DNA from: Archangium sp.
GTDB taxonomy: Bacteria > Myxococcota > Myxococcia > Myxococcales > Myxococcaceae
Direction of reading: 5' to 3'
NCBI GenBank assembly: GCA_031367385.1
Contig: JANLPS010000255.1
Span: 1-27,303 of the forward strand
DNA length: 27,303 nt
The first letter of the stretch is position 1. Each line of letters begins with the position of its first letter. A program made the translations under genes and the position numbers. Below the pieces are notes generated by a model that saw only the letters and a list, made by a program, of their open reading frames with translations, made no database searches and was not told where the DNA came from. This document shows positions 13,107-26,898 of the stretch, one piece after another.

Positions 13107-13925
13107 TTACTCTTTGAGAAACTGGCTCATCGTCAGCTGCAAGTGACTGCGAGCGCCGGTGAGCAAGCTGTTCACCTCGGAGGGCGTGAGTCGATGCGCC
13201 TCGGTGAGCAGCCGCTCGGTGCCGCTCAAGATGTCTTTGCGAACCGCCTCAACCCGCCGCGCGATGGTCGAGCGCGGCGTCTGAAACATGCGCGAGAGCT
13301 GATCCATCGTCAGGCCTTCGACGTAGTGCAGGCGCAAGAGTGAGCGCTCAGAGGGTTCGAGCAGCTCGACGGCGCGGGTGAAGGCATCGCGAAAGAGGTG
13401 CTGGGCCTGGGCTTTGACGTACGAGAGCTCTGGGTCGAGCACGACGATCGGCGCGTGATCGGGCTCGAGCGCCTCGGTCTGCGCGGCGCCCCGAACCAGA
13501 TTCAAGGCGGTGCGAACGGCGGTGATTCGCAGCCAGCCCCCGAGGGCTCCAGCGCCTGAATACTCGAGGATCTTGGGGCCTGAGGTTTCTCCGATGACGA
13601 CTGCTTGCCGAAGCTTTTGCTTCACCTCGGCGACGAGGTCTTTGTCGACGGTGACACGGACCAGGTACGAGCCGACGTGCGACATGAAGTGCCGCTCGAA
13701 GGCCTCGAGCGCGATTCGGTTTTGCTGACCGACCGCGCAGGCCAGGTAGAGATCAGAGAGGTGGGCCGGCACTCCGCTCGCGGCGTGGCGCTTCACGTGC
13801 TTCGCAAAATCGCTGGCGCTCAGGTCGACGCCCGGCCAGGTGCTGCGGGCCTCATCGAACCGCGCGTCGAGCTCAGCCTGGGTGCCGGCACCGAGCAGCT
13901 CGGAGAAGTTGGGGCCGTTGGCCAT
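13107..13925 (-). CDS. ECF-type sigma-70 factor with N-terminal extension (Myxococcales family, TIGR03001-like)
   Basis: HLSDLYLACA, YSGAGALGGWLRITAVRTALNL (region 2), DPELSYVK, and ERSLLRLHYVEGLTMDQLSRMFQTPRSTIARR (region 4 HTH). Confidence 0.85.
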   Translation of the reverse strand: MANGPNFSELLGAGTQAELDARFDEARSTWPGVDLSASDFAKHVKRHAASGVPAHLSDLYLACAVGQQNRIALEAFERHFMSHVGSYLVRVTVDKDLVAEVKQKLRQAVVIGETSGPKILEYSGAGALGGWLRITAVRTALNLVRGAAQTEALEPDHAPIVVLDPELSYVKAQAQHLFRDAFTRAVELLEPSERSLLRLHYVEGLTMDQLSRMFQTPRSTIARRVEAVRKDILSGTERLLTEAHRLTPSEVNSLLTGARSHLQLTMSQFLKE

Positions 13926-13952
13926 CGGGGTGGACTATATGTCTGTTCGCGA

Positions 13953-16676
13953 ATGCCCTGCCCGACCGAAGACGTGTTGCTGGGCTTCGTCGACGGGCAG
14001 CTTGGTCAAGCCGACCTGGCTCACGTCTCATCGCACCTCGACGGGTGCATGACCTGCCGCGCAGTGGTGGGCGCTTCGTTGCCGGTACGCGATGACAGTG
14101 ATCAGCTGGGCCGCTACGTACTTCGCCGGGTCATCGGCTCAGGCGGCATGGGCGTGGTGTACGAGGCCTTCGACCCCGAGCTCGATCGAAACGTGGCGCT
14201 CAAGTTGCTGCGGCCGGAGCTGGGCACGCAGACCTTGCAAGACCGGTTGGTCGCAGAGGCTCAAGCGCTCGCGCGGCTCTCGCACCCCCACGTGGTGTCG
14301 GTGTACGACATCGGCCGCGCGGCTGATCAGGTCTTCATCGTGATGGAGCTGGTCAACGGGCTTTCACTTCGAGAGTGGCTCTCGGCGGCGTCTCGTCGCA
14401 TCGACGAGGTGCTCGAGGTGTTCACCCACGCCGCCGAAGGGCTCGACGCGGCGCACTCGGTCGGCCTGGTTCACCGCGACTTCAAGCCCGAGAACGTGTT
14501 GATCACCCGGGGTGGGCGAGCGCAAGTCAGCGATTTCGGTCTGGCATTTTCGCTCACGAAGCCGCCCGACGCGGTCGACGAAGGGTCTGCGGGGTACATG
14601 GCGCCTGAGCAGCGGGCTGGGCTGAGCGTCGACGCGCGATCTGATCAGTACAGCTTCTGCTTCTCACTCGCAGAGGCCACGCGCGGGGCTGCGCCGAGGT
14701 GGCTTCGCAAGATCATCGAGCGAGGCACGCAGCCGAGCCCCGAGCGCCGCTTCGCTTCAATGCGCGAGGCGATCACCGCGCTCCACCGCGGCCGGCGCAT
14801 GCGGGTGACCCAGCGCGTGGTGGCGGCGATCGCCGCAATCGTGCTGGTGGGCGGAGTCTTCGGAGCTGTCGAGCTGGCTCGCCGCCATCAAGCCCGCGCG
14901 AGCTGTGAAGCCGAGGCAGCGTCGATTGATCAGGAGTGGAGCTCGGCCTCGGCCGCCACCGTGCGAAACGCCTTCGAGCACACAGCCAGCCCCCTGGCGA
15001 CCCGAGCCTTGAACACGGTGAATGCTGGGTTCGACACCTACACCCGTGAATGGCGCGCGGCGCACGTGCGGGCGTGCGAGGCGACCCGTTTGTACGGTCA
15101 GCAATCAGAGGCAGTGCTCGCCCAGAAACTGAGCTGCCTGGCTGATCGCGCCCAGCTGTTTCGTTCAGTGAGGTCGGCGCTCGAAGGCGTCGACGCACCG
15201 ATGCTCGAACGCGTTGGGCCGATTCTGCAGACGCTGCCACCGGTCTCGGCGTGCGACGATGCGCGGGCGTTGGCAGCGGCCCCGGCGGCGCCTCCGAGCG
15301 CGGTGGCACGCGAGGTCAGCCAGGCTCGCGGGCTCATCGGAGAGGCGTCAATCGCGATCACCGCTGGGCACTACGATGATGGGTTGGCAACGGCGCAAAA
15401 AGCGGTGCTGGCCGCGCACGCGACCGGGTATTTGCCGGTGATCGCTGAGGCCTCGCTCTGGGCGGGCATCGCGCATGGCCGGCTGGGAGCACTCGGGCCA
15501 GCACTCACGGCGCTCGAAGAAGCGGCATCGGCGGCCGCCGCGAGTCACGTCGAGTCGATCGCGGTGCGGGCATGGGTGCAGCTGATGCACTTCGTCGGGT
15601 TCGACGGCAAACGGCCCGACGACGGGTATCGCTACAACGCCTATGCAGAGAGCGCGCTGAAGACGATGTATGGCGCTGCCGAGCTCGAGGCCGAGCGCCT
15701 GTCGTGGCTGAGCGCGCTGCTCGCTGATCAAAAACGTTTCACCGAAGCCCAAGCCGCCTCTGAGTCGCAACGCGCCGTCGTCGAGACCCAGCTGGGCAAA
15801 TCACATCGGCTGTATGCGGTGGCGCTCGATGGTTTGGCGGGAGTGCTTGCAGGGCGAGGCCGAAATCGCGACGCCCTGCCCTTTCAGCGCGAAGCCTGTG
15901 AGGGGGTCGAGCGCGAGCTGGGGCCATTGCACCCGCAGCTGGCGATGTGTTTGAGCAACCTGGCGGCGCTGAACGCGAACGTGGGTGAGCACGAGCCGTC
16001 GATTGCGCTCAAGCTGCGGGCGCTCGAGATGTTCGCCCAGCTGCCCGGGCACCCGAGCCATGTCGCGATGACGGAGCGGAACCTGGCGCGCTCGTACCTC
16101 GAGTTGGGGTCGCTCGACGAAGCAGCGAAGCACCTCGAGGCCGCAGAGAAATTGGGCAAGACGGCGAGCGATCAGCTGAGCCTGCTGCGGCTGCGCGGAG
16201 ACCTGGCCCGGGCCCGAGGCAACCTGAGCCTCGCGTTCGAAACGCATGAGCTGGCCGCTGCAGAGGCGAGAAAGGGCGCGCTGCCGGCACAGCTCGATCC
16301 GCTCCTCTCGCTGGGGTGGAGCGCCTTGGCCGCCGAGCAATTCACCGAGGCAGACGAAGCGGCCCGGCAGGCGCAAGCGGTGGCGCGCGCGGTGTATGGC
16401 GAGAGATCGTTTCGGCTCTCGGAGCCGATGCGCTTGGCGGCTCAATCGTTGATCGCACAACATCACCCCGAGCTGGCCCGCCCGTACGCCGAAGGTGCGC
16501 TGCAGTTGCTCGGTGACGCGCAAATCGACCCAACGGTGCTGGCGCGAGCACGCTTTGCGCTCGCGCAAGCGCTGACCGATGATCGGCCACGCGCGCTGGA
16601 GTTGGCGGGGCTCGCGCGACAGTCGCTCAATCGCCAGTTGGCCGAAGAGATCGACGCATGGAGCGCAGGACGCTGA
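13953..16676 (+). CDS. Membrane Ser/Thr protein kinase with N-terminal ZAS-like zinc finger and extracytoplasmic TPR region
   Basis: C...HLDGCMTC; IGSGGMGVVY, VALK, HRDFKPEN, DFG, YMAPE; TM VVAAIAAIVLVGGVFGAV; TPR-like repeats (LGPLHPQLAMCLSNLA). Confidence 0.93.
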   Translation: MPCPTEDVLLGFVDGQLGQADLAHVSSHLDGCMTCRAVVGASLPVRDDSDQLGRYVLRRVIGSGGMGVVYEAFDPELDRNVALKLLRPELGTQTLQDRLVAEAQALARLSHPHVVSVYDIGRAADQVFIVMELVNGLSLREWLSAASRRIDEVLEVFTHAAEGLDAAHSVGLVHRDFKPENVLITRGGRAQVSDFGLAFSLTKPPDAVDEGSAGYMAPEQRAGLSVDARSDQYSFCFSLAEATRGAAPRWLRKIIERGTQPSPERRFASMREAITALHRGRRMRVTQRVVAAIAAIVLVGGVFGAVELARRHQARASCEAEAASIDQEWSSASAATVRNAFEHTASPLATRALNTVNAGFDTYTREWRAAHVRACEATRLYGQQSEAVLAQKLSCLADRAQLFRSVRSALEGVDAPMLERVGPILQTLPPVSACDDARALAAAPAAPPSAVAREVSQARGLIGEASIAITAGHYDDGLATAQKAVLAAHATGYLPVIAEASLWAGIAHGRLGALGPALTALEEAASAAAASHVESIAVRAWVQLMHFVGFDGKRPDDGYRYNAYAESALKTMYGAAELEAERLSWLSALLADQKRFTEAQAASESQRAVVETQLGKSHRLYAVALDGLAGVLAGRGRNRDALPFQREACEGVERELGPLHPQLAMCLSNLAALNANVGEHEPSIALKLRALEMFAQLPGHPSHVAMTERNLARSYLELGSLDEAAKHLEAAEKLGKTASDQLSLLRLRGDLARARGNLSLAFETHELAAAEARKGALPAQLDPLLSLGWSALAAEQFTEADEAARQAQAVARAVYGERSFRLSEPMRLAAQSLIAQHHPELARPYAEGALQLLGDAQIDPTVLARARFALAQALTDDRPRALELAGLARQSLNRQLAEEIDAWSAGR

Positions 16677-16696
16677 ATCAGCGGTGCCGCGAAGCT

Positions 16697-16722
16697 GGAA
16701 CTCGCGAACTCGGGTGCTGTCA
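16697..16722 (+). promoter_or_regulatory. Candidate ECF sigma promoter
   Basis: GGAACT, 16 bp, GTCA, ending 12 nt upstream of the ATG at 16735. Confidence 0.45.
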
Positions 16723-16734
16723 GGAGGTCACGGA

Positions 16735-17886
16735 ATGAAGTCGATACTCGCGGCGGTCGTGGTCGGGCTCGTGGTGATGGCCCTCTGGTGGTGGCTCGAG
16801 CCCAGTGCGGTGGTGACCTTGCCCCCGGTGCCCGAGACACCTCGGTCAGCAGGCCTGGCAGCCGCCGTGCCGAGTGAGGCGCCGCCTGTGATTCACGGTG
16901 CAGCCAGTGAACCCATCGATGCGTCGGTGGTCACCGAAGCCGAGGTCGACGACGACGGCTACACCGGCCCAGTGAACAAGGTCAGCGACGAAGAGATTCA
17001 ACAGACGCTCGCGCTGAACGCGGCATTTGCTCGAGCCAATGTCGGGCGCTTCTGCGAGCTCGCAGAACGACTTGCCAGCGACCCGCTCTTCAAGCCCCTG
17101 CAAGGCTCACGTGATGCGACGCGTGACTTGACCCGGCTCTTCGGCGTCACCGAAGAGGAGCGCCGGGTGCGACTGCCGATCGAGGTACGCCAGTCGTTGA
17201 TGGCGGGCACGGGGCTCGAGCTCACCGCCGAACAGCTGAGCCAAATCGACTTCGGGTGGATGCGACACATGCGCGACTTCGATCGAATCACCGGCCAGAT
17301 GGAGGGACCGATGGCGTGGGGCGATGTGGTGTATTCGCCGGCCTCGAAATTTCCCTACTACTTCGTGAGGTTGCGCATTCTGCGTGCGGCGAAGGTTCAC
17401 GACTGGGAAGACGCCGCGAGAGACATCGAAGCGTTCGCCGGCCTGCTGCACTCGACGAGCTCGCCGCACGCAGAGGCGGAGGCGGCACGCGTGATGGAGC
17501 TCGAGCTCGAAACCATTGCCTTGCTGCGAGAGAACGGCGCCGCGGTGCCCAGCCTGCCGCTGCCCAGCATTGAGAAGGTGCGGTTGCACGCCGCGTTGGG
17601 TCATGACGCGTTTCGCTTTGTAGCGCCTGGCGTTGACGTGGCCGTGCAGCAGCAAGCCTTCGACTGCGCGAAACGTGCGGGTTTCGAGTGCGCGACGGCG
17701 CTCGAGTCGGTGGCCATGTCGAACAATCTGCGGCGAGTGATCGAGACCACCCCACCGGCCTTCGATCGCTCGCGCTGCAACGAATACAGATTCAAAGTAC
17801 TCGGCCGCACCGTTGACTACTGGGGTGCCGCTGGCGAGAACGCGCGGCTGCGAGAGGGCTCGCCCCTCTTCGGCGAATTGCGATAG
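16735..17886 (+). CDS. Membrane-anchored/secreted hypothetical protein
   Basis: GGAGG before the ATG; N-terminal TM (MKSILAAVVVGLVVMALWWWL), Pro/Ala/acidic linker, and a helical domain with 4 Cys. Confidence 0.75.
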   Translation: MKSILAAVVVGLVVMALWWWLEPSAVVTLPPVPETPRSAGLAAAVPSEAPPVIHGAASEPIDASVVTEAEVDDDGYTGPVNKVSDEEIQQTLALNAAFARANVGRFCELAERLASDPLFKPLQGSRDATRDLTRLFGVTEEERRVRLPIEVRQSLMAGTGLELTAEQLSQIDFGWMRHMRDFDRITGQMEGPMAWGDVVYSPASKFPYYFVRLRILRAAKVHDWEDAARDIEAFAGLLHSTSSPHAEAEAARVMELELETIALLRENGAAVPSLPLPSIEKVRLHAALGHDAFRFVAPGVDVAVQQQAFDCAKRAGFECATALESVAMSNNLRRVIETTPPAFDRSRCNEYRFKVLGRTVDYWGAAGENARLREGSPLFGELR

Positions 17887-17890
17887 CGCG

Positions 17891-18790
17891 CTACTTGAAA
17901 CGAGGGTGATCTTTGCTGCTCATTTCTCCGCGAAATTTCTGAAATTCTTTCGGGTCGAGGTCGAGCACGATGTCGGGCCGCAGCGACGCCAGCTTCATCG
18001 AGGCCTTTCTGTGCAAATCAAGCAAGTCGTCAAAGATGGCTTGGCTGGTCGGCAGCGTAATTTGGGGGTCGTTGCGTTCGAAATAGAGCCAATGAGGGTT
18101 GGCTGGCGTCTTGGGCAGCGCCCCCCACGCGTCTTTGGTCTTCTGCTCGAACGTTCGCAAGTCGAGCCGCATGGCAACCGCGAGGGCCGAGCGATCGAGG
18201 GCGGGGTATTCGCGAACCGGGCCGATGCGCTCGAAGGTCAGGGTCGCAGCGTACAGGTCGGCGGCGTCAGGGTGCACCGCCATGACCAGGTCATCGACGC
18301 CCAGCAACTTCCACGCGGTGAGAAACATCGTCTTGTAGAGCAGAAAAGACATGCCGTTGCCGCGGCGGCCCGGGGTGATGCAGAGCGCTCCGACCTCGGC
18401 GGCCGCACGACCTTGATCACGCAACGCCTGAATCTCGTCGCCGTAGATCTTCTGCATCGGTAAGCCGACTGGGCCGTCTTTGACCAGCGAGAGGGTGCCG
18501 GCGACCTGGCCCGACTCGAGGGCCACGAAGACGATGGTCGAGGGCAGGGCCAGGTAGTGCGTCATTCGTATGCGCGACTCGTGGGGTGCCATGATGCCGC
18601 GATTGACGTAGCCGTCATGCACGAGGGTCATCGCCGCGACGTACTCATCGATGGTGCTCGCGATGCGAACCGCGTCAACGCGCCGAAGCTCGTCGTCGTT
18701 GAGCTTCATGCCATTGCGAATGATGTTGAAGCGAACGGGCCGCGGCATCAATCGAAGCGCGAGTTGGGTCAGGCGTCGTGAGAGCTTCAT
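17891..18790 (-). CDS. N-acyl amino acid synthase, FeeM-type (GNAT/AHL-synthase-like fold)
   Basis: RIA.T..E..AA..LVHDGY..RG, TIVFVA, GTLSLVKDGPVGLPMQKIY..EI..LR, AEVGAL and LVMAVHP, all as in FeeM/NasY-type enzymes. Confidence 0.85.
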   Translation of the reverse strand: MKLSRRLTQLALRLMPRPVRFNIIRNGMKLNDDELRRVDAVRIASTIDEYVAAMTLVHDGYVNRGIMAPHESRIRMTHYLALPSTIVFVALESGQVAGTLSLVKDGPVGLPMQKIYGDEIQALRDQGRAAAEVGALCITPGRRGNGMSFLLYKTMFLTAWKLLGVDDLVMAVHPDAADLYAATLTFERIGPVREYPALDRSALAVAMRLDLRTFEQKTKDAWGALPKTPANPHWLYFERNDPQITLPTSQAIFDDLLDLHRKASMKLASLRPDIVLDLDPKEFQKFRGEMSSKDHPRFK

Positions 18791-18803
18791 TTCGGCTCGC
18801 TGC

Positions 18804-18812
18804 GTTATAGCA
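18804..18812 (-). promoter_or_regulatory. Extended -10 element upstream of the N-acyl amino acid synthase
   Basis: Minus strand TG-C-TATAAC, 13 nt before the ATG; no SD. Confidence 0.45.
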
Positions 18813-18832
18813 AGACCCGCTCGACCCCTGCT

Positions 18833-19771
18833 TCAAAACCTGGCACAGACACCGAGGGCCGCGCCGCCCTCGAAGCGCCAGGTCTGGAGCGCGGTGATCG
18901 ATTGATCGACCTTCTGAATTTGGTACCGGGTGTCACGCAGGGCGATGTCGCCCCACCCTTCGAGCACCAGGTCGAGCGGCCCGACGAGCCGCAACGCCAA
19001 CGTCGTACCGACGAGTGCGACCACGCCCACATCGGTGCCTGGCGGCGTGGGGTCGACGCCCTCGGCGATCGCCCGAGGCGTGACCCGAACGAAGCGCATG
19101 GCGAACCCCACGCGTGGGCGCAGCGTGAGCCGGCCGAGGTGCAGGGCCCAGTCGACGCCCAGGCCAACCTCGTTGCGCTGAAAGTCGACGCGAACCAGCT
19201 CGTCGGTGAAGGTCGTGGGCAGCTCGAACCGACCCCACCCCGTGAGAGAAAAGGGCGCGCTGAACACCCAAGACGCCTCGACCACCGGCCCTTGGGCCCA
19301 CGGCACGGCGGCAGCCCACTTGGTGGCGTGCCAGAGGGCCGAGAGCCGAAACCGCTCGTCGTGCAACACACTGCTCGGCGGCTCGGCGTCTTGCTCGACG
19401 AAGCTCGCCACCGCGCTGCGCACCATCAACGCGGCCGCCTCCCGACCTCCGCTGTCGATGACGAGGTCGCGTTGTACGTGCCGGCCGGTCCACACGTCGG
19501 CGACATGAACTCGCCACGGCACCGTCTCGACCCAGATGGCCACCCGGGTGCGCTTGCCGAAAAGCAACCGGCGAACCTGCCGGAGCTGCCCGGCTTCGGT
19601 GCTTTCCCATGGCTCGGTTTCGCGAACGGTCTCGAGCACGACCTCGAGGTCGGTCAATTGGGCGGTGATGGCCGCGGTGAGCTGGGCGTCTGAGTTCGAC
19701 CCGAAGAGCGTGACCTCGACCGGCCCGTTCGAGGCAGACAAGCACGTGAGGAGCAACACGGCGGCAGTCAT
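18833..19771 (-). CDS. Exported protein with periplasmic N-domain and probable small C-terminal outer-membrane beta-barrel
   Basis: ATG overlaps the upstream stop (ATGA). The C-terminal ~160 aa show alternating amphipathic strands (EVGLGVDWAL, LTLRPRVGFAMRFVRV, LDLVLEGWGDIAL) and the protein ends in Phe. Confidence 0.7.
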   Translation of the reverse strand: MTAAVLLLTCLSASNGPVEVTLFGSNSDAQLTAAITAQLTDLEVVLETVRETEPWESTEAGQLRQVRRLLFGKRTRVAIWVETVPWRVHVADVWTGRHVQRDLVIDSGGREAAALMVRSAVASFVEQDAEPPSSVLHDERFRLSALWHATKWAAAVPWAQGPVVEASWVFSAPFSLTGWGRFELPTTFTDELVRVDFQRNEVGLGVDWALHLGRLTLRPRVGFAMRFVRVTPRAIAEGVDPTPPGTDVGVVALVGTTLALRLVGPLDLVLEGWGDIALRDTRYQIQKVDQSITALQTWRFEGGAALGVCARF

Positions 19772-21084
19772 GGCGAGCTCGGAATGGGGAAGGTCGGGCT
19801 GAAGGGCCCAGTGTTGCCGTTGGTGGTTTCGGTGAACAGGGTGCCAGCCTCGAGGCCGAAGGCCAGCGCCTGAGACGCCAGGCTCCAGGCCGAAGCGGGG
19901 GTGCAGGTGACAGAGCTGACGGGGGCCCACGTCGAGCCTGAGCGGGTGTACACCTCGACGGTGCCATCGGTGGGGCAGGCGCCGGTGACCGAGCCCAGGC
20001 CAGCGTCGGCGATTGGTGCGGTGAGCCCATTGCTGGTGAACGAGCCGACGATGACGTTTTGAAAGAACGAATTGCCCCCGCTCGTGAAGTTGTTCACGCT
20101 GCCCTCGAAGTGATTGAGCGGGCCGATTCGCCAGCCCGAGCCGCTCACCGTGACGTACGGCGCTCCGTTGCCGACCTGAAGCAGGGTATTCGAGGCGACC
20201 GTGCCTCCTTCGGTGCCGGTCAACTGCAGCGCCGCGTTGCCGACATTGTTGGTGAAGCGCGCGCCGGTGAAGAGCGTGACAGCGACCCTGAGATCGAGGC
20301 CCCGCATCGTCGTGGGCTCGAGGCCAAAATAGTTGCCATCGATGACCACCTGGGTGGGGTTCGCGCCGAAGTAGAAGTCGAGGCGCACGCCGTAGGTGCC
20401 GTGGCCAAACACGTTCCACGGGCCGATGACCGACCCGTTGGTCACCTGGAGCGCCTGGTACGCGATCATCAGTCGATTGCCGGCGACCAGCGCCTCGGAG
20501 ACGCCGATCTTCCCCATGTTGCCCTTGAGCACGAGGCCGGTGAGCTGGGAGCCGCTGCCGAGCGCCCACGAGCAGAAGTGGGCGCATCGGTCGGTGAAAG
20601 CGAACTCGACGATCACCCCACGGCCGCGCCCGTCGATGCAGGTGTCGACGAGCACCCCGCCGGGGTACGGCAGCGCGTCATCGGTGACGTGAATGGTGGT
20701 CGCCGCCCCGGGGGGAAACACCGCAGGGTCGAAGGTCACCAAGTGCGGGCCCGGGGTGTTGGTCGCGAGAAACAAGGCTTCTCGCAGCGAAAGGGTGGTG
20801 CCCGCGGCGGCTCGGTCGTTCAAGCCCGGGCCGCCTTCGAGCAGATCGTCGAGGGTGTCGACCACCAACACGCCTCCGTCGGTGCACCTTCGAATGGGCA
20901 GCGCGTCAGCGAACACGCCCCACTGCCGCTCGAGCGCGAGCTCTTCGAGGCCGCCCGCATCAGCGACCTCGCCGCCGTCGACGCCGCCACCGCTGATGGC
21001 GACGACGCGATCGACGGTGCAGTGGCAGCTCAGAGCCCAGAACGCCAAGGCGCAACCCCACAGCACCCCGCGGGGTGTGGTCAA
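19768..21084 (-). CDS. CSLREA-type surface lipoprotein with parallel beta-helix region
   Basis: TTG start overlapping the upstream TGA; signal peptide ending ALSC; VVDTLDD...TLSLREALFLA...VTFD; Asn/Gly-rich beta-helix turns (IDGNYFG, FTNN, FFQN); C-terminal VEVY...GNTGPFS Ig-like segment. Confidence 0.75.
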   Translation of the reverse strand: MTTPRGVLWGCALAFWALSCHCTVDRVVAISGGGVDGGEVADAGGLEELALERQWGVFADALPIRRCTDGGVLVVDTLDDLLEGGPGLNDRAAAGTTLSLREALFLATNTPGPHLVTFDPAVFPPGAATTIHVTDDALPYPGGVLVDTCIDGRGRGVIVEFAFTDRCAHFCSWALGSGSQLTGLVLKGNMGKIGVSEALVAGNRLMIAYQALQVTNGSVIGPWNVFGHGTYGVRLDFYFGANPTQVVIDGNYFGLEPTTMRGLDLRVAVTLFTGARFTNNVGNAALQLTGTEGGTVASNTLLQVGNGAPYVTVSGSGWRIGPLNHFEGSVNNFTSGGNSFFQNVIVGSFTSNGLTAPIADAGLGSVTGACPTDGTVEVYTRSGSTWAPVSSVTCTPASAWSLASQALAFGLEAGTLFTETTNGNTGPFSPTFPIPSSP

Positions 21085-22712
21085 TGAGGCGTCGCAGGTT
21101 GAAGCGCGGCCCTGCGAAGCACCAGGCGTGGCGCGTTGAAGTCGTTGGGCCATCGGGCGAGAAACGAATCTATCGCTGCGAGCTCATTCGCGCTCTGGCC
21201 AAGACGCGCAAAGGCGCGAATCTGACACAGCTCGGCCTCGGCCAGGAGCGCACCGGAGGGGTTGCGCTGAATGTAGGTCTCGCACTGCGCCTGCCCCTGC
21301 CCCGGCGCTCCGAGCTGATCGACCTGCAGCTGGCCCAGCGAGAGCCGAGCAACCTCGGCGGCGGCGCTCATCGGGTGCCGCTCGATGATCGCCGAGTAGG
21401 CGCGGGCCGCGAGGCGCCAGTCTTTCTGGGTGCGGGCCTCCTGGGCCTGCTGGAGCAGCTGCTCGGTGGTTTCGGCCGGCGAGGTGTCGACCGGAGCGAC
21501 CGACGGCTCGGGTGAGCCTGTGCCGCCCGCGTTCGTTACCGAAGCCGGCGGCTGAACCTGCCCGCGCGCTACTTTCTCAGGCGCGGGGGGCGGGCGGTCG
21601 GTGATGACGCTCTCGCGGCCACTGACAACCACGAGGGTCGAGCGCGTCGCCCGGCCGCGCGGGTCGAGGCGGCTGACCGAGTGGGGGCCCAAGGCCAGCA
21701 TCAGCTTCACCGGTGCGGCACCGACCGAGACCGAGTCGACGGTGACCTCTTTGCCCGAGAGCACCGAGAGCCCGCCTGCTCCTGCGCTGACCAGTTGCTC
21801 GTGAGCCAAGCTCTCGCGAGCGCTCGAAAGCTCGCTCTTCGAAGCCATCGACGGTCGGGCCGCGCCCAACGACAGCGCAAACCCAGCGCTGACCCTGCTC
21901 TGGTGGCCGCCCGCGTCGACCTGAACGGTGCCCTCGACGACGACCAGCCGGGTCTTGGCCTTGGCGGTGTCGAGCGCGAACGCGGTGCCGATCACCTTCA
22001 CCTGGCCGTGCGGGGTGCGCACGCTCAAGTCGATGCCCTGGCCGTGCGGCACGTGCACGTCGAGGTGCCCAGCGCGCAGGTCGAGCACCAGGTCGTGATC
22101 TGTGAGCTTTGCGAAGGTGAAGTCGGTGCCGGGCCGCGCCCGCACCCAAGCCTGGCCCGGCACGGCGAGGCCCAGCGTGGCGGCGCCCGTTTGCACAACC
22201 GTGCCCTGGGCGATTTCGAGACCGGGCGAACGCTCGTCGCGGCCCGAGACCGAGAGCACCCGCGCCAGCATCGGCGCCACCGAGGGCATTGGCGGCGCGG
22301 GCTCAGGTGGGGTGACCGGCGCGACCCGAGGCACGGTCGGGGCGACGGCCACCTGGGGTCGAGGCGGCGGCGGCCCCTGCCGCAGGTACAACAGGGCCCC
22401 AGCCAGCACGAGAAGGCCCGCGGCCATTGCCGCAACGCCGCGCCCCCACCGCCGCGGTGTTGCTGCCCCAAGCTCGCCCTCAGCCGTCTGGGCCCCCCGC
22501 AAGACCGCGTCGACGGTGCGGCGTTGCGCCAGCGCATCGAGCGGAAAATGGTCATCATCGTTCGGCCGCAGGGCGATGGCCGCCAGCGCGCGCTCGAGCT
22601 CGCGGCAGTCGGCACACCCGGCCAGATGCGCTGAGACGAAGTCGGCGCTGGCCTGATCGCTCGGGCCGCCGGCGTCGACGAGTGCCTCATATCGTTCGCA
22701 GTCGGGGCTCAT
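21081..22712 (-). CDS. Anti-sigma factor: ZAS zinc finger, TM, FecR domain, PEGA-like segment and C-terminal TPR
   Basis: C...HLAGCADC; TM; FecR motifs VRTPHGQVKVIGTAF and TRLVVVEGTVQV; TPR AARAYSAIIERHP...YIQRNPSG. Overlaps the sigma gene stop (ATGA). Confidence 0.88.
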   Translation of the reverse strand: MSPDCERYEALVDAGGPSDQASADFVSAHLAGCADCRELERALAAIALRPNDDDHFPLDALAQRRTVDAVLRGAQTAEGELGAATPRRWGRGVAAMAAGLLVLAGALLYLRQGPPPPRPQVAVAPTVPRVAPVTPPEPAPPMPSVAPMLARVLSVSGRDERSPGLEIAQGTVVQTGAATLGLAVPGQAWVRARPGTDFTFAKLTDHDLVLDLRAGHLDVHVPHGQGIDLSVRTPHGQVKVIGTAFALDTAKAKTRLVVVEGTVQVDAGGHQSRVSAGFALSLGAARPSMASKSELSSARESLAHEQLVSAGAGGLSVLSGKEVTVDSVSVGAAPVKLMLALGPHSVSRLDPRGRATRSTLVVVSGRESVITDRPPPAPEKVARGQVQPPASVTNAGGTGSPEPSVAPVDTSPAETTEQLLQQAQEARTQKDWRLAARAYSAIIERHPMSAAAEVARLSLGQLQVDQLGAPGQGQAQCETYIQRNPSGALLAEAELCQIRAFARLGQSANELAAIDSFLARWPNDFNAPRLVLRRAALQPATPH

Positions 22713-23290
22713 CGGTCGCCTCCCTCAGTCGAATCTGGGGCGCTCAACCACGCGCGCAGCTCGGCGCGAGCGACCCTCAGGCGGTCACGAACGGTGTTGA
22801 CCTTGGTGTTGGTGGCGACGGCGATCTCTTCGACCGAGTAGCCGTGTACGTGCTTGAGCACCATCGCCTCGCGGCGCTCCTCGGGCAGCCGCGCCAGCAC
22901 CAGCGCCATCGCGCTGCGTTGATCAGAAGCCTCGGCAGGCGCCTGGCTCTCGCGCGACCACTCGGGGTACTCCGGCATCACCTCGACAGCCTGCTCGCGG
23001 GCCTCGGCGGTGCGGCGCTGCTTGATCAGCCGCATCACGGTGCGGGTGGTGATGCTTGCGGCCCACGACTCGAGGGGGCTCTCGCCGCGGTAGGTCGAGC
23101 ACGAGCCCAAGACTTCAATCAGCGCCCGCTGGGTCATGTCGTCGACGTCGGGGCTACGTGCCGCGAGATACATGACCGTGCTCCTCACCCGCCCCAGGAG
23201 GCGGCCCACCAGCTCGCGCCGGGCGCGCTCGTCGAAGCGAGCCGCAGCGGCCACCAGCTTGGCGTCCTCCTCGTGCACCCGTGGGCTCAA
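22709..23290 (-). CDS. ECF RNA polymerase sigma factor
   Basis: DVDDMTQRALIEVL, YRGESPLESW (region 2); LPEERREAMVLKHVHGYSVEEIA...NTVRDRLRVAR (region 4). Confidence 0.93.
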   Translation of the reverse strand: MSPRVHEEDAKLVAAAARFDERARRELVGRLLGRVRSTVMYLAARSPDVDDMTQRALIEVLGSCSTYRGESPLESWAASITTRTVMRLIKQRRTAEAREQAVEVMPEYPEWSRESQAPAEASDQRSAMALVLARLPEERREAMVLKHVHGYSVEEIAVATNTKVNTVRDRLRVARAELRAWLSAPDSTEGGDR

Positions 23291-23323
23291 TAGTTGACGC
23301 TCGGAGCGGTTGCGAGGGGCGAA

Positions 23324-24523
23324 TCATGCCGCGATTCTCTTGCCGACGACGCCGTCGAACCACGACCGAAACCGCGTGGGCGCGAGGCTCGCCGAGAAAC
23401 GGGGCTGCAACGCTCGTGCGCTGTGGGTGTAGCGGGGGTTCTCCATCAGCTCCTTGAGGGCTGCACCGACGCGTGAGGCGTTGGCTTGCGACGCTGGCAA
23501 GACGAGCCCTGCGCCGGCCGCGACCAACGGCTGGCAGGCGAGAAACTGATCCATGTTCGAGCAGATGCCCAAGAAGGGGCGACCGGCGGCGATGGCCTGC
23601 GCGGTCGAACAGCTGCCGCCGTTGCAGACCACCAGACGCGATCGCTTCGCCGCCTGGTAGCCGGGAATGTAGGGGGCGGTGAGCACGCCGTCGGGGGCCG
23701 AGCCGCGCTCGGCAGTCGCCAACATGACGCGCAACCCGAGCGCGCGCATCGTCTCGATCATGGTGCGCTTCATCAACTGGCCCGCGCCCGTCGACCCCAC
23801 GGTCAGCAGCGCCAGGTCGTCGGCCGGAGCCATCGCCTCGAGCCACGACGGCGACGGGGTGGGCGGCTCCCACACGATGGGCGCCAGAAAGGTCGAGCGC
23901 TTCAACGAAGGGTAGAAGCCGGCGTCGTCGACGAAGAGCAGGTCATCGGCGTCTTGGTAGCCCTCGCGCATGTCGGTGAACGGGGTGAAGCCGTGGCGCC
24001 GGCGCATCGCGTTGAGCGGCTCGACGTGCTGGCGAAAGAAGAAGCCGGTCAGTTTGCGAAACACGGGCTCCGAGATGCTGCGAGGCATCAGCGACATCAC
24101 CGGGTGCTCGGGCATCGGGTAGGTCGACAGCGGGAGCGAGGGGCTCCAGTGGGCGTTGCTGAGCATGGCGAAGCGCACTCCGGCCAGCCGCGCGCTCACC
24201 TGCAACGAGAAGCGCAGGTCGCCCACGATCAGGTCGGGCTGCACCTTCTCGATCAAGCGCAGGTCTTCGTCGACGTCGGCCAACAAGGTCGCCTCATCGA
24301 AGAGCGGCTTGCCCACCGCCATGCGGGCGACGAAGGTGTCGGGGGTCATCGTCTCGGCAAGCTCATGCTGGGTCGCGTGCGGCAGCCCGACGAAGCGAGC
24401 CATGCGGGCGGTGCGAGCGAAGTGCACCTCGGCGTCGGGCAGCGCGGCCGCCAGCGCGGCGGGCCGGGCAACGTGGGCCAAAGACACACCTTGCGACATC
24501 ATCAGCACCCGAAAAGAAGACAT
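23324..24523 (-). CDS. GT-B (GT1-like) glycosyltransferase resembling mycobacterial PGL/pHBAD glycosyltransferases
   Basis: GVSLAHVARP, PDLIVGDLRFSLQVSARLAG...NAHWSP, TVGSTG, VVCNGGS and NMDQ motifs. GGAGGT RBS before ATG 24523. Confidence 0.88.
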   Translation of the reverse strand: MSSFRVLMMSQGVSLAHVARPAALAAALPDAEVHFARTARMARFVGLPHATQHELAETMTPDTFVARMAVGKPLFDEATLLADVDEDLRLIEKVQPDLIVGDLRFSLQVSARLAGVRFAMLSNAHWSPSLPLSTYPMPEHPVMSLMPRSISEPVFRKLTGFFFRQHVEPLNAMRRRHGFTPFTDMREGYQDADDLLFVDDAGFYPSLKRSTFLAPIVWEPPTPSPSWLEAMAPADDLALLTVGSTGAGQLMKRTMIETMRALGLRVMLATAERGSAPDGVLTAPYIPGYQAAKRSRLVVCNGGSCSTAQAIAAGRPFLGICSNMDQFLACQPLVAAGAGLVLPASQANASRVGAALKELMENPRYTHSARALQPRFSASLAPTRFRSWFDGVVGKRIAA

Positions 24524-24682: not shown

Positions 24683-25228
24683 ATGCGTGAAGACTCGAAC
24701 CAGTCGCTGCTCAAAGTGTCGGTCGCGACGCTCATCGAAGAAGCGAAGGCGATGAGCGCCGAGACCTTCGTCGAGCGCTACGGGGCGACGGCGCTGCTCT
24801 CGCGGCCCTCAGACGAGCAGATGAAACGAGCGGCGCTGCAGTTGACCATGGCCTCGACGGCGGTGAGCGCCCAGGCGAACGAGTACCTCGACGACTTGCT
24901 GATCATGCTGCGTGGGTTTCGCAGCCTGGCGGCGTTCTTCTTGAGGCCGTCGAGCGCCGGGCAGATCTTCACCGTGGGGCGCGAGGCGTCGTGCGACGCG
25001 ACCATCGATGACCCGTCTGTCTCGAAGCTCCACGCCTCCCTGACGTGGACGGGCCAGACCTGGCGTATTCGAGACGAGCGATCGCTCAACGGCACTTACG
25101 TGAACGCAGACGAGCTGGTGCGGCATGAAGGCGAGCTGACCAACGGCGATGCGGTCGCCTTGGGTGACTGCCAGTTGGTCTTCATTCAGACCCGCACGTT
25201 GCGCTCGCAGTTGCTGGCGATGAGCTGA
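24683..25228 (+). CDS. FHA domain protein
   Basis: FHA motifs VGRE, VSKLHA, D..SLNGTYVN and L.NGD.V.LG in the C-terminal half. Confidence 0.9.
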   Translation: MREDSNQSLLKVSVATLIEEAKAMSAETFVERYGATALLSRPSDEQMKRAALQLTMASTAVSAQANEYLDDLLIMLRGFRSLAAFFLRPSSAGQIFTVGREASCDATIDDPSVSKLHASLTWTGQTWRIRDERSLNGTYVNADELVRHEGELTNGDAVALGDCQLVFIQTRTLRSQLLAMS

Positions 25229-25242
25229 AGGCCCCCGCTGCG

Positions 25243-26898
25243 TCAGCGGGTCAGTTCATCGGCGACCCGAAGGGCGTTGGCGGCGATGGTCAGGCTGGGG
25301 TTTGTGCCCCCGCTGGAGGGAAAGAACGAGCTGTCGACCACGAAGAGGTTCTCGAGCTCGTGGCAGCGGTTGTGCTTGTCGAGCACGCTGGTCTGGGGGT
25401 CGTCGCCGAAGCGACAGGTGCCGCAGACGTGGGCCAGCCGTTCGTTGTTTTCAGCCTGTTTGACCACTCGAAAGGCCCGCCCCTTCAAGGTGCTGCGCAT
25501 CACGCTGCGAAACTTGGCGATTCGCGCTCGATCTGGCTCGCGCAGTCGGTACGAGAGGCGCACCGAACCGACCGGGCCTTCGAGGTCGGGGGTGATCTGG
25601 TTCTCGAGGTAGGGCAGATCTTCGATGATCGTGGCCAGGGTGATCGACCGGTCGACCATTTTCTTGAGAAACGAGACCATGACCGGCCTGGCCAGCGACA
25701 TGGCGCCGGCCAGCCACGGGAGCGCCCCGGCCTTGAGCTCGCTCTTCAGGGTGCCGAAGATCATCTCTGGGGGAGGCAGTCGCCCGAACGATTGAACCGA
25801 CCCGAGCCGAACCCCATCGACGCGGTAGAAATCGTTGAAAGCGAACTCTTTGAACCGGTTGTCGAAGCCCGCCGTGAGCGAGGCGCGATCGGCTTCGACC
25901 AGATAGAGATCGATGAAGTGCCGCATCAGGTTGCGCCCGACCAACCCCGAGCCATTGGCCAGCCCCTGCGGCCAATCGGCGCTGGCCGAGCGCAGCAGCA
26001 GATTGGGGGTCTGCAGCGCGCCCGCCGCCAAGAAGACCTGGGTGCCTCGCAGCAGCAGCTCGCGGCCTTGCCAGGTACACGAGACCCCGGTGACGCGCGT
26101 TCGGTCGGCCTCGATGCGGGTGACCTGGCAGTCGGTCAGCAACGTGGCTCCGAAGTCGCGGAGCGCGGGAGTCAGCCCAATTCGGCCGCTGTCATTCTTG
26201 CATTCGAGCGCGCACAGAACGCTCTGGCACGACTGACACTCGGGCAGCGATTCGCAGGCGACCGGCAACGGGTATGGGTGCAGACCAGCCTTGCCGAAGA
26301 ACTCGCACAGCTCGGCCACCGCAGGCGAGAGCGGCCGGGGCGGCGACTGATACCGCGGTGGGTGGTCGAGGTTGAGCGGGTCGCGGGTGCCCCGCACCCG
26401 GTAGAGCGCCTCGGCCTGCGCATAATACGAGCAAAAGGCGTCGTACCGAATCGGCCAAGCGTCTGGGAGCGACGACTGGGTCTCGTCGGCGTGGTTCGAC
26501 CGAGGCGAGAAGTCTGCCGCAGCGAAGCGCTCGAGCGACATGCCGTACAGCCCGGTCGACCCGCCGGTGCCCGAGCCGATGAAGGGCACGAAGCGATGAG
26601 GCCTGGAGGTTGACACGTCGAACACCTCGTCGACCGAGCGACCGGCGCTGGCTAACAACGCCGCGGCCTCGGCCTCGAGCACGTCGCCTCGCCGCGACCC
26701 TGCTTGCTGCTGCTCGGGGTACTCGCCTTTGAGCCCGTCGCTCGAGAGCAGCGTCATGCGGCCCCGTTCGCAGAAGAGCACCCGCTTGCCGCGCTTGGCC
26801 AGGGCGTAGCCGAGGGTCGCGCCCCCCATGCCGGTGCCGATGACGATTGCGTCCCACACGGTGGAGCTCAGAGCGTCAGCAGAAGGACCGGGGATCAA
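25243..26898 (-). CDS. GMC-family FAD oxidoreductase
   Basis: DAIVIGTGMGG FAD loop, G.GGST, LAAGALQTPNLLLRS, VGRNLMRH, HVCGTCRFG and GTNPSLTIAANALR. Confidence 0.92.
   Translation of the reverse strand: MIPGPSADALSSTVWDAIVIGTGMGGATLGYALAKRGKRVLFCERGRMTLLSSDGLKGEYPEQQQAGSRRGDVLEAEAAALLASAGRSVDEVFDVSTSRPHRFVPFIGSGTGGSTGLYGMSLERFAAADFSPRSNHADETQSSLPDAWPIRYDAFCSYYAQAEALYRVRGTRDPLNLDHPPRYQSPPRPLSPAVAELCEFFGKAGLHPYPLPVACESLPECQSCQSVLCALECKNDSGRIGLTPALRDFGATLLTDCQVTRIEADRTRVTGVSCTWQGRELLLRGTQVFLAAGALQTPNLLLRSASADWPQGLANGSGLVGRNLMRHFIDLYLVEADRASLTAGFDNRFKEFAFNDFYRVDGVRLGSVQSFGRLPPPEMIFGTLKSELKAGALPWLAGAMSLARPVMVSFLKKMVDRSITLATIIEDLPYLENQITPDLEGPVGSVRLSYRLREPDRARIAKFRSVMRSTLKGRAFRVVKQAENNERLAHVCGTCRFGDDPQTSVLDKHNRCHELENLFVVDSSFFPSSGGTNPSLTIAANALRVADELTR

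Follow-up and report, generated by a model that had tools for sequence, protein, structure and literature searches.

A 22-gene cluster of Archangium sp. that likely encodes an O-glycosylated N-acyl-tyrosine-derived lipid, with a predicted FHA partner of its FeeM-type synthase and two embedded ECF cassettes

Glycosylated acyl-tyrosine lipids have been described in bacteria, i.e., hyellamide (PMC11959600) and myxotyrosides A and B of a Myxococcus sp., which are rhamnosylated, acylated, tyrosine-derived lipids (PMC2854365). For the hye cluster of Hyella patelloides, an acyltransferase, a FeeG-like flavin oxidase, a glycosyltransferase (GT), and an LpxA-like acetyltransferase were proposed, in an assignment that is itself bioinformatic, to give an O-glycosylated, acetylated N-acyl-tyrosine enamide, with a transporter also encoded in the cluster (PMC11959600), and FeeG converts N-acyl-tyrosine to an enamide by decarboxylation (PMC8762209). 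The physiological role of bacterial N-acyl-tyrosines has been described as largely unknown (PMC11959600, PMC4897644). Here we analyze a locus on a 27,303-nucleotide contig of Archangium sp. (GCA_031367385.1, JANLPS010000255.1, positions 1 to 27,303; hereafter the window), in which a first-pass annotation had noted a run of six genes, i.e., a GT, an extracytoplasmic function (ECF) sigma factor, an anti-sigma factor, a lipoprotein, a barrel protein and a FeeM-type N-acyl amino acid synthase. Overall, our data suggest that these genes belong to a 22-gene cluster for the likely, if by no great measure, synthesis and export of an O-glycosylated lipid derived from N-acyl-tyrosine; an FHA protein is predicted to bind the synthase, and transcription is possibly controlled via two ECF cassettes.

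The window is a complete contig (C203) of an 8.0 Mb genome (98% complete), and the six genes are not a unit that ends at position 24523; the cluster continues over two further contigs, C43 and C251. The right end of the window and C43 share an exact, unique end overlap of 67 bp, and C43 and C251 share one of 141 bp; such end links were found for 182 of the 1124 contig ends of the genome, 2 of them being ambiguous. Open reading frames (ORFs) for a 311-aa methyltransferase and a 594-aa anti-sigma factor read through the two joins, both ends of C43 are spanned by contigs from other assemblies (two of the four runs concerned may be the source of the present genome), and the GT protein is also on record in a 44,576-base contig. 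The joined stretch carries 22 genes over at least 24.5 kb, with the six noted genes at its left end, in the order synthase, barrel protein, lipoprotein, anti-sigma factor, ECF sigma factor, GT, FHA protein, GMC oxidoreductase, methyltransferase, second lipoprotein, hexapeptide acyltransferase, SDR, third lipoprotein, second anti-sigma factor, second ECF sigma factor, second barrel protein, a 234-aa protein of unknown function, an FtsX-type permease, a flavin adenine dinucleotide (FAD) oxidase, a 621-aa protein of unknown function, an ABC ATPase and a cut LolA-like gene.

As compared to the hye cluster by described roles, the present cluster shares an acyltransferase and a transporter as well as the GT and LpxA-like acetyltransferase that mark hye/fee-type loci, and its FAD oxidase would fill the role of the FeeG-like enzyme. 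HyeC, on the other hand, is an SGNH/GDSL protein and not FeeM-type (PMC11959600), and the present cluster adds the GMC, SDR, methyltransferase and FHA genes and the two ECF cassettes. With the fee cluster from environmental DNA, it has in common a FeeM-family synthase with an aligned Glu and a phenol-type FAD oxidase encoded in the cluster; however, the present synthase has a 90-residue C-terminal extension that is missing from FeeM (2G0B), and a GT module as well as FHA and ECF genes are present here. No gene for an acyl carrier protein, acyl ligase, ThiF, nitroreductase, PEP-CTERM protein or carotenoid (crt) enzyme was found among the 22 genes. The myxotyrosides represent the product class that had been predicted for this locus; no genes were linked to them in the two papers found, and the present organism is not tied to them.

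The assignment of the synthase to the FeeM type in the first-pass annotation was borne out by a match to PF21926 (E 4e-40, 137.5 bits as compared to a cut-off of 27), with 2G0B as the sole match among solved structures in the PDB. In the alignment with 2G0B, Glu132 falls on the Glu of its AEV motif (Glu95 of FeeM, chain position 96 by count), which is given as catalytic (PMC4897644), and Glu132 is invariant in two sets of homologues (22 of 22 and 57 of 57). Besides four strong synthase paralogues, the genome has one weak FeeM gene (on C519); the window synthase is closest to its own paralogue (65% identity).

The GT, which is present in a single copy in the genome, has an EryCIII-like GT1 C-terminal domain (PF06722, E 2e-12, 47.7 bits as compared to a cut-off of 31.7), and residues H17, D102, D325 and Q326 are invariant in 42 sequences; we take H17 to be the N-terminal His with D102 as its Asp partner, and D325-Q326 to be the D-Q sugar motif. 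The likeness to Rv2962c and Rv2958c noted in the first-pass annotation was assessed indirectly, via a homologue annotated as a PGL/p-HBAD glycosyltransferase, which is 28% identical over 377 aa. To describe the neighborhoods of this GT clade we used a metagenomic sample (the best 80 of at least 520 confirmed loci, with neighbors labelled by BLAST against our own reference set) and a survey of 401 Myxococcota genomes (four candidates scored per genome, with GT clade membership at E < 1e-70). Among the 80 metagenomic loci, the GT was accompanied by a nitroreductase in 44, PEP-CTERM-type proteins in 44, ThiF in 35, a hexapeptide acyltransferase in 25, a FeeM-type or ExoAT synthase in 24, a GMC protein in 24, an SDR in 19, FtsX in 18, and carotenoid genes or an FAD oxidase in 1 each; all 24 synthase-bearing loci were among the 42 loci of at least 10 kb. 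When GTs were clustered at 70% identity, 11 of 42 clusters included a FeeM-type or ExoAT synthase and 26 of 42 a synthase, ThiF or nitroreductase. All 19 loci with an SDR also had a GMC gene (e.g., L133, L135, L136, L151-L153), and this pair possibly performs an oxidation-reduction epimerization of the sugar. The GMC, SDR, hexapeptide acyltransferase, methyltransferase and FAD oxidase of the present cluster have best matches of 59, 68, 60, 55 and 48%, respectively, among these GT neighbors, with those of the methyltransferase and the FAD oxidase coming from one metagenomic locus each.

In the Myxococcota survey, the GT clade was found in at least 11 other genomes (14 loci, and 1 more by a deeper search). 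Eight of these 15 loci are in carotenoid clusters and seven are not; at three of the seven, the GT is located within 2 kb of a FeeM gene (twice in genome G155, and once in G212, where the GT is divergent). Synthase and GT are also neighbors on a Bdellovibrio plasmid (L107, 8640-17456), which carries a synthase-GT-rfbB row (rfbB encoding dTDP-glucose dehydratase; the synthase is annotated as hypothetical) as well as a nitroreductase-GT-hexapeptide fragment; a second GT of the plasmid is annotated as a PGL/p-HBAD glycosyltransferase, and a Burkholderia GT homologue is encoded downstream of a tyrosine isonitrile synthase. The first-pass annotation had named, as an observation that would speak against its proposal, that homologues of the two enzymes are never neighbors elsewhere; with 24 of 80 metagenomic loci, three of seven non-carotenoid Myxococcota loci and the Bdellovibrio plasmid showing this adjacency, the proposal was not refuted. 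In a tree of 85 representatives, carotenoid-linked GTs formed their own clade (support 1.00), while the window GT nested in a pathway-linked clade (deep branches were weak). A carotenoid-cluster assignment of the window GT was thus rejected, as the GT falls outside the carotenoid clade and no crt gene occurs in the cluster. Carotenoid-cluster GT loci (L074-L081) were found in eight Myxococcota genomes, some with a MerR-B12 regulator. In the sister species, the GT clade is absent (best E 2e-11; 87% complete genome).

Alternatively, the GT module (GT, GMC, SDR, methyltransferase and hexapeptide acyltransferase) may decorate another substrate, e.g., the beta-helix lipoproteins or another envelope lipid, and synthase and FHA may have joined it separately. 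The PEP-CTERM-type surface proteins that adjoin the GT in more than half of the metagenomic loci (44/80), the location of all four beta-helix lipoprotein genes of the genome beside module genes, the different nearest relatives of synthase and GT module, and the carotenoid-linked sister clade of the GT are consistent with this explanation. However, 17 of the 21 clusters with a long locus link the GT clade to ThiF, nitroreductase or synthase genes, i.e., to enzymes acting on N-acyl amino acids (PMC10404671), and the synthase-GT adjacency recurs in G155 (twice), G212 and Bdellovibrio. We thus consider decoration of another substrate unlikely, although it is the strongest of the alternatives considered here.

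With the GT acting on an acyl-tyrosine substrate as the preferred reading, the nature of the end product is informed by the FAD oxidase on C251, a FAD_binding_4 protein of the VAO/PCMH family, whose best solved relatives are 4-alkylphenol oxidases and vanillyl-alcohol-oxidase/p-cresol-methylhydroxylase enzymes; FeeG presumably belongs to the same family. Related FAD oxidases face the synthase at eight other loci of the family. As judged from the gene content, the most likely product would be an O-glycosylated N-acyl-tyrosine enamide of the hyellamide/myxotyroside class. The first-pass proposal of an O-glycosylated N-acyl-tyrosine therefore stands in part: the enzyme adjacency recurs and the compound class exists, but the final compound is probably more than a plain N-acyl-tyrosine with a single sugar, because synthase and GT are only part of a 22-gene cluster.

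We also considered whether the product might end as a glycosylated N-acyl-tyrosine acid or an oxazolone, with a ThiF that adjoins a synthase paralogue on C291 acting in trans. Among the 80 metagenomic loci, ThiF and nitroreductase are far more frequent than the FAD oxidase (35 and 44 as compared to 1), the ThiF of the genome is 61% identical to ThiFs of GT loci, and predicted glycosyltransferases adjoin oxzB genes (bioRxiv 10.1101/2020.06.11.147165). Conversely, the FAD oxidase gene is located within the joined cluster while ThiF is on another contig, and a search of the 98%-complete genome with two queries gave no TyzC/OxzB-type nitroreductase, a negative that speaks against the dehydro-oxazolone pathway described in PMC10404671. 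An acid or oxazolone end product thus appears rather improbable, and the enamide remains the preferred product. The OxzAB/TyzABC loci and the ExoAT (TIGR03694) PEP-CTERM loci (PMC10404671; bioRxiv 10.1101/2020.06.11.147165; PMC12479983) share with the present cluster a common GT clade, GMC/SDR genes, a hexapeptide acyltransferase and ABC/LolA-like genes in proteobacterial-type loci; here, however, ThiF is encoded elsewhere, and beta-helix lipoproteins and ECF cassettes replace PEP-CTERM. Membership in the OxzAB/TyzABC group, which would place ThiF and a nitroreductase beside the synthase, was rejected as neither is among the 22 genes. A candidate myxotyroside-type locus was observed in another genome (G212:C208 4764-10978, L082), with a LysR gene, a divergent GT, a fatty-acid desaturase, a synthase and an FAD oxidase; its synthase-FAD oxidase pair recurs, without the GT, in seven other genomes.

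In the pathway that these families suggest, the FeeM-type synthase would join a long acyl chain and tyrosine, the C251 FAD oxidase would decarboxylate the product, yielding the 4-hydroxystyryl enamide in a reaction like that proposed for FeeG/HyeB, and the GT would add a sugar to the phenol. The sugar might then be tailored by the GMC and SDR proteins, the methyltransferase and the hexapeptide acyltransferase, and the lipid would be moved outward by the ABC/FtsX, LolA-like and outer-membrane proteins. Observed as such are the genes and their order, the overlaps between contigs, the matches to families and the counts of co-occurrence.

The tightest partner of the synthase lies just beyond the six genes that had been noted, i.e., the gene for a short FHA protein. 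An FHA paralogue is located near all four strong synthases of the genome (as a direct neighbor in three cases, and at 5.9 kb in the window) and near the single strong synthase of the sister species G001, while the weak FeeM gene on C519 has no FHA gene nearby. Synthase and FHA trees both pair the window with C367 and C291 with G001. A predicted complex of the window proteins scored 0.87 as compared to 0.00 for the best of three controls, with at least 95% of contacts shared among three runs and a partner predicted local distance difference test score (pLDDT) of 87; 116 of 157 solved pairs and 2 of 215 mismatched ones reached the complex-score mark used, although these counts apply only approximately to our own alignments. 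In the model, the C-terminal helix of the synthase (residues 258-291) contacts FHA residues 65-79, 141-143, 154-157 and 166-180. Residues that bind phosphothreonine are absent from the listed contacts; the FHA protein would thus dock away from its phosphothreonine pocket. As matches to solved FHA domains begin no earlier than profile position 68 (most at about 80) and FeeM matches only to position 211, the synthase helix and the FHA extension (residues 65-79) lie beyond the stretches matched to solved structures, and recall of a similar complex is unlikely. R77 and V166 of the FHA protein occur in all five synthase-linked FHA proteins as compared to 2 and 0, respectively, of 27 unlinked ones (these proteins are kin and thus not independent), and most of 40 closely related uncultured homologues retain the motif of the synthase helix. 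Overall, the synthase is predicted to bind the neighboring FHA protein, and the lipid would in this way be coupled to kinase signaling.

The FHA proteins GarA and OdhI use the phosphothreonine pocket for contact with their targets and are switched by phosphorylation. The window FHA protein resembles them in its short length, in the conserved Thr of an N-terminal loop and in its predicted binding to a metabolic enzyme, but differs in having a folded 80-residue extension without a solved homologue, in its target, i.e., a lipid synthase, and in a predicted contact that avoids the pocket; with 53 bits as compared to a cut-off of 200, it is not an ortholog by the NCBIfam OdhI model. The pocket residues (G99-R100, S114, H117 and N136-G137) are invariant, and all 32 aligned FHA relatives carry a Thr at T59 or one column to either side, which suggests a GarA/OdhI-like switch in which phosphorylation of Thr59 would switch the FHA protein. 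Nas343 and Nas354 likewise represent N-acyl-tyrosine synthases coupled to a signaling module, in that case PilZ (PMC4897644). Here, by contrast, the module is a separate FHA protein, which points to Ser/Thr phosphorylation and not to cyclic di-GMP; PilZ-bearing relatives occur among 58 synthase homologues of 164-524 aa.

Among 22 related genomes of the family, 19 encode short FHA proteins with an N-terminal extension, and these frequently occur as tandem pairs (C400 769-1841, L012; L210-L238). Elsewhere in the genome, C367 (6411-13022, L006) carries convergent synthase and FHA genes between a Ser/Thr kinase with a phosphoesterase and a GAF-containing Ser/Thr kinase, and C1 (5627-12694, L008) carries an FHA-synthase pair between genes for a family-2 glycosyltransferase, a hexapeptide protein, a PPK2-like protein and two alpha/beta hydrolases. 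A second cluster on C291 (3851-12109, L007) and on G001:C524 (L084) encodes a methyltransferase, ThiF (PRK08223 above cut-off), FHA, synthase, MMPL and LolA-like proteins and, in the present genome, a 621-aa protein as well; its first six genes are conserved in the sister species.

FecI/FecR systems couple an ECF sigma factor to a membrane anti-sigma factor with a FecR domain, adjoining an outer-membrane protein. The ECF-FecR pair of the first-pass annotation was found as described, including the 4-bp gene overlap: the ECF protein comprises regions 2 and 4 only (Sigma70_r2 and r4_2, with TIGR02937 above cut-off), and the translationally coupled anti-sigma factor has an HxxxCxxC zinc motif, one hydrophobic segment, a FecR domain and weak zf-HC2, PEGA and TPR-like matches. 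As in FecI/FecR, an outer-membrane protein gene is adjacent; here, however, the predicted product is a small barrel of 8 strands joined to a TolB-like periplasmic domain rather than a TonB-dependent receptor, and TPR/PEGA parts and a beta-helix lipoprotein are added. FecIRA-type TonB-dependent signaling was rejected, as the outer-membrane protein has 312 aa and is modelled with 8 strands and no Pfam TonB hit was obtained among the cluster proteins scanned. The barrel protein matches no Pfam family; its alignment-based model (19 sequences, pLDDT 89.6, used in place of a single-sequence fold with pLDDT 34.8) resembles 8-stranded OmpA/NspA barrels (Z 17.1, rmsd 2.9, 149 aligned residues) and the TolB N-terminal-like domain (Z 10.1, rmsd 3.0, 103 aligned residues), and its nearest Atlas clusters are hypothetical and mostly from Myxococcota (0.98). 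The "CSLREA lipoprotein" is predicted to be a lipoprotein, with an invariant Cys after a hydrophobic stretch, but its motif reads LSLREA, and no Pfam or NCBIfam family matched at E 0.01, although NCBIfam holds a CSLREA model. It is one of four paralogues in the genome, with an Atlas assignment to NosD/Beta_helix (0.91; Beta_helix in 2 of 7 members) and no significant relative in a profile search against solved structures (best E 0.024); a C277 protein was not homologous and was dropped from the alignment. The fourth paralogue (C165 1430-4055, L010) is encoded downstream of a stand-alone 2-oxoacid-dehydrogenase-type acyltransferase, 53% identical to a GT neighbor elsewhere, and these two genes are possibly a detached part of the pathway.

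The first-pass annotation placed this cassette as controller or receiver of the pathway. Synthase or GT genes with a cassette no more than 10 kb away were found in G000, G337, G142, G116 and G155, i.e., in five genomes from four families, and 2 of the 12 FecR genes of the present genome are in the cluster, while by chance approx. 3% of genome positions are located within 10 kb of a FecR gene (1.4-10% per gene across genomes). Anti-sigma and barrel genes occur at four of seven pathway-type GT loci as compared to none of eight carotenoid GT loci (the cassette profiles were built from the same loci, with Pfam supporting them separately). On the other hand, five newly found full-length lipoprotein loci all adjoin an ECF gene, but three of them lack pathway genes (the two with pathway genes are both in G155), and the other 10 FecR genes of the genome have no pathway gene within 10 kb. 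The cassette is thus an autonomous module that is enriched beside the pathway; that it acts as controller or receiver is unproven, as it occurs without pathway enzymes and is missing from the 80 metagenomic GT loci. A functional link to the pathway has about an even chance, and sensing of the product by the cassette is improbable.

This autonomy, together with the lack of a shared promoter motif and of the GT clade in the sister species, would also fit a six-gene run that arose by a rearrangement accident, with cassette and GT unrelated to the synthase; given the cassettes near pathway genes in five genomes of four families against the chance rate above, and the difference between pathway-type and carotenoid GT loci, we regard such an accident as very unlikely. 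In the preferred reading of a joint cluster, as the weakest step, the barrel, beta-helix lipoprotein and anti-sigma factor might relay an envelope cue to the ECF sigma factor. A full lipid-signal circuit, in which a glycosylated acyl-tyrosine enamide from a synthase gated by a GarA-like FHA phospho-switch would be exported and sensed by the beta-helix lipoprotein and barrel, and relayed via the TPR/FecR anti-sigma factor to the ECF sigma factor without a TonB-dependent receptor, is an extension that we consider rather improbable.

A number of observations weigh against a joint pathway as outlined here. The synthase is just 24-33% identical to synthases adjoining the GT in metagenomic loci and, being closest to its own paralogue, indicates that the cluster is composite; in Stieleria, a synthase inside the cluster is dispensable and is not the main producer (PMC12479983), and amino-acid, acyl and sugar specificity are unreadable from sequence. 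In 8 of the 11 other Myxococcota genomes with the GT, carotenoid clusters house the sister GT clade, and the GT family thus changes acceptors. With respect to the FHA protein, its gene in the window is 5.9 kb from the synthase on the opposite strand, the link comprises five pairs from two genomes of one genus, no FHA gene was found at 23 synthase loci outside the genus, and no FHA fusion was found among the 58 synthase homologues. The full cassette occurs at just 3 of 24 other synthase loci (4 partial), at none of 8 FAD-oxidase-linked loci, at none of the 80 metagenomic GT loci, where PEP-CTERM genes take its place, and at only 1 of 5 FeeM loci of the genome.

Features of the window are listed in Table 1. 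All six genes had been correctly described as co-oriented (GC content at third codon positions 0.79-0.87, i.e., coding-type) and closely packed with gaps of at most 42 bp: GT and ECF genes are separated by 33 bp, ECF and anti-sigma genes overlap by 4 bp, as do lipoprotein and barrel genes, and barrel and synthase genes are separated by 42 bp. The lipoprotein ORF would overlap the anti-sigma gene by 73 bp if started at ATG 21153; with the in-frame TTG at 21084, the overlap with the anti-sigma stop is 4 bp. A -10 element of its own had been suggested for the synthase; the word (TG-C-TATAAC, without the final T) is present but failed the consensus scan.

Table 1. Positions of cluster features within the window
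Feature	Position	Strand	Basis
FeeM-type N-acyl amino acid synthase, 299 aa	17891..18790	-	PF21926; 2G0B alignment; Glu132; complex model
Weak extended -10-like word upstream of synthase	18804..18812	-	sequence; failed scan
Predicted outer-membrane protein, TolB N-terminal-like domain and 8-stranded barrel, C-terminal Phe	18833..19771	-	model, fold searches
Predicted LSLREA-motif beta-helix lipoprotein	19768..21084 (ORF open to 21153)	-	invariant Cys after hydrophobic stretch, Atlas NosD/Beta_helix
Anti-sigma factor, HxxxCxxC, FecR, PEGA-like, TPR-like	21081..22712	-	sequence, Pfam, NCBIfam
ECF sigma factor	22709..23290	-	Sigma70_r2, r4_2; TIGR02937 above cut-off
Family-1-type glycosyltransferase, 399 aa	23324..24523	-	EryCIII-like domain, invariant residues, tree
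Short FHA protein, 80-residue N-terminal extension, loop Thr T59	24683..25228	+	family, model, conservation
GMC oxidoreductase	25243..26898	-	59% over 540 aa to GMC genes adjoining same GT clade elsewhere
S-adenosylmethionine methyltransferase, 311 aa, 3' part; starts on C43	26905..27303	-	join reading frame

A sigma-70 promoter scan yielded 0 promoters, terminators (5 as compared to 5.2 expected) did not exceed chance, Rfam had no match in the three contigs, and no shared promoter motif for the cluster survived testing. A word shared upstream of the GT, SDR and second barrel genes was rejected as an ECF promoter, as it falls in ribosome-binding regions or coding sequence and is frequent throughout the genome. 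Positions 13107-17886 of the window encode a TIGR03001 Myxococcales-type sigma factor, divergent from a TPR Ser/Thr kinase, and then a 435-aa protein without a family, the gene for which terminates 4 bases from that of the synthase; a paralogue of this protein is encoded on C428.

Overall, the chemistry suggested for this cluster is of a known kind, and its regulatory setting is the new element; in the literature searched, which included few subscription papers, we found no description of a FeeM and GT enamide gene set in a myxobacterium, of the embedded cassettes, or of the FHA-synthase pairing. If the predicted FHA binding is true, lipid synthesis would be tied to the kinase signaling of the cell, and, with the short FHA family present in most related genomes, a first target for this family would be informative beyond the present locus.

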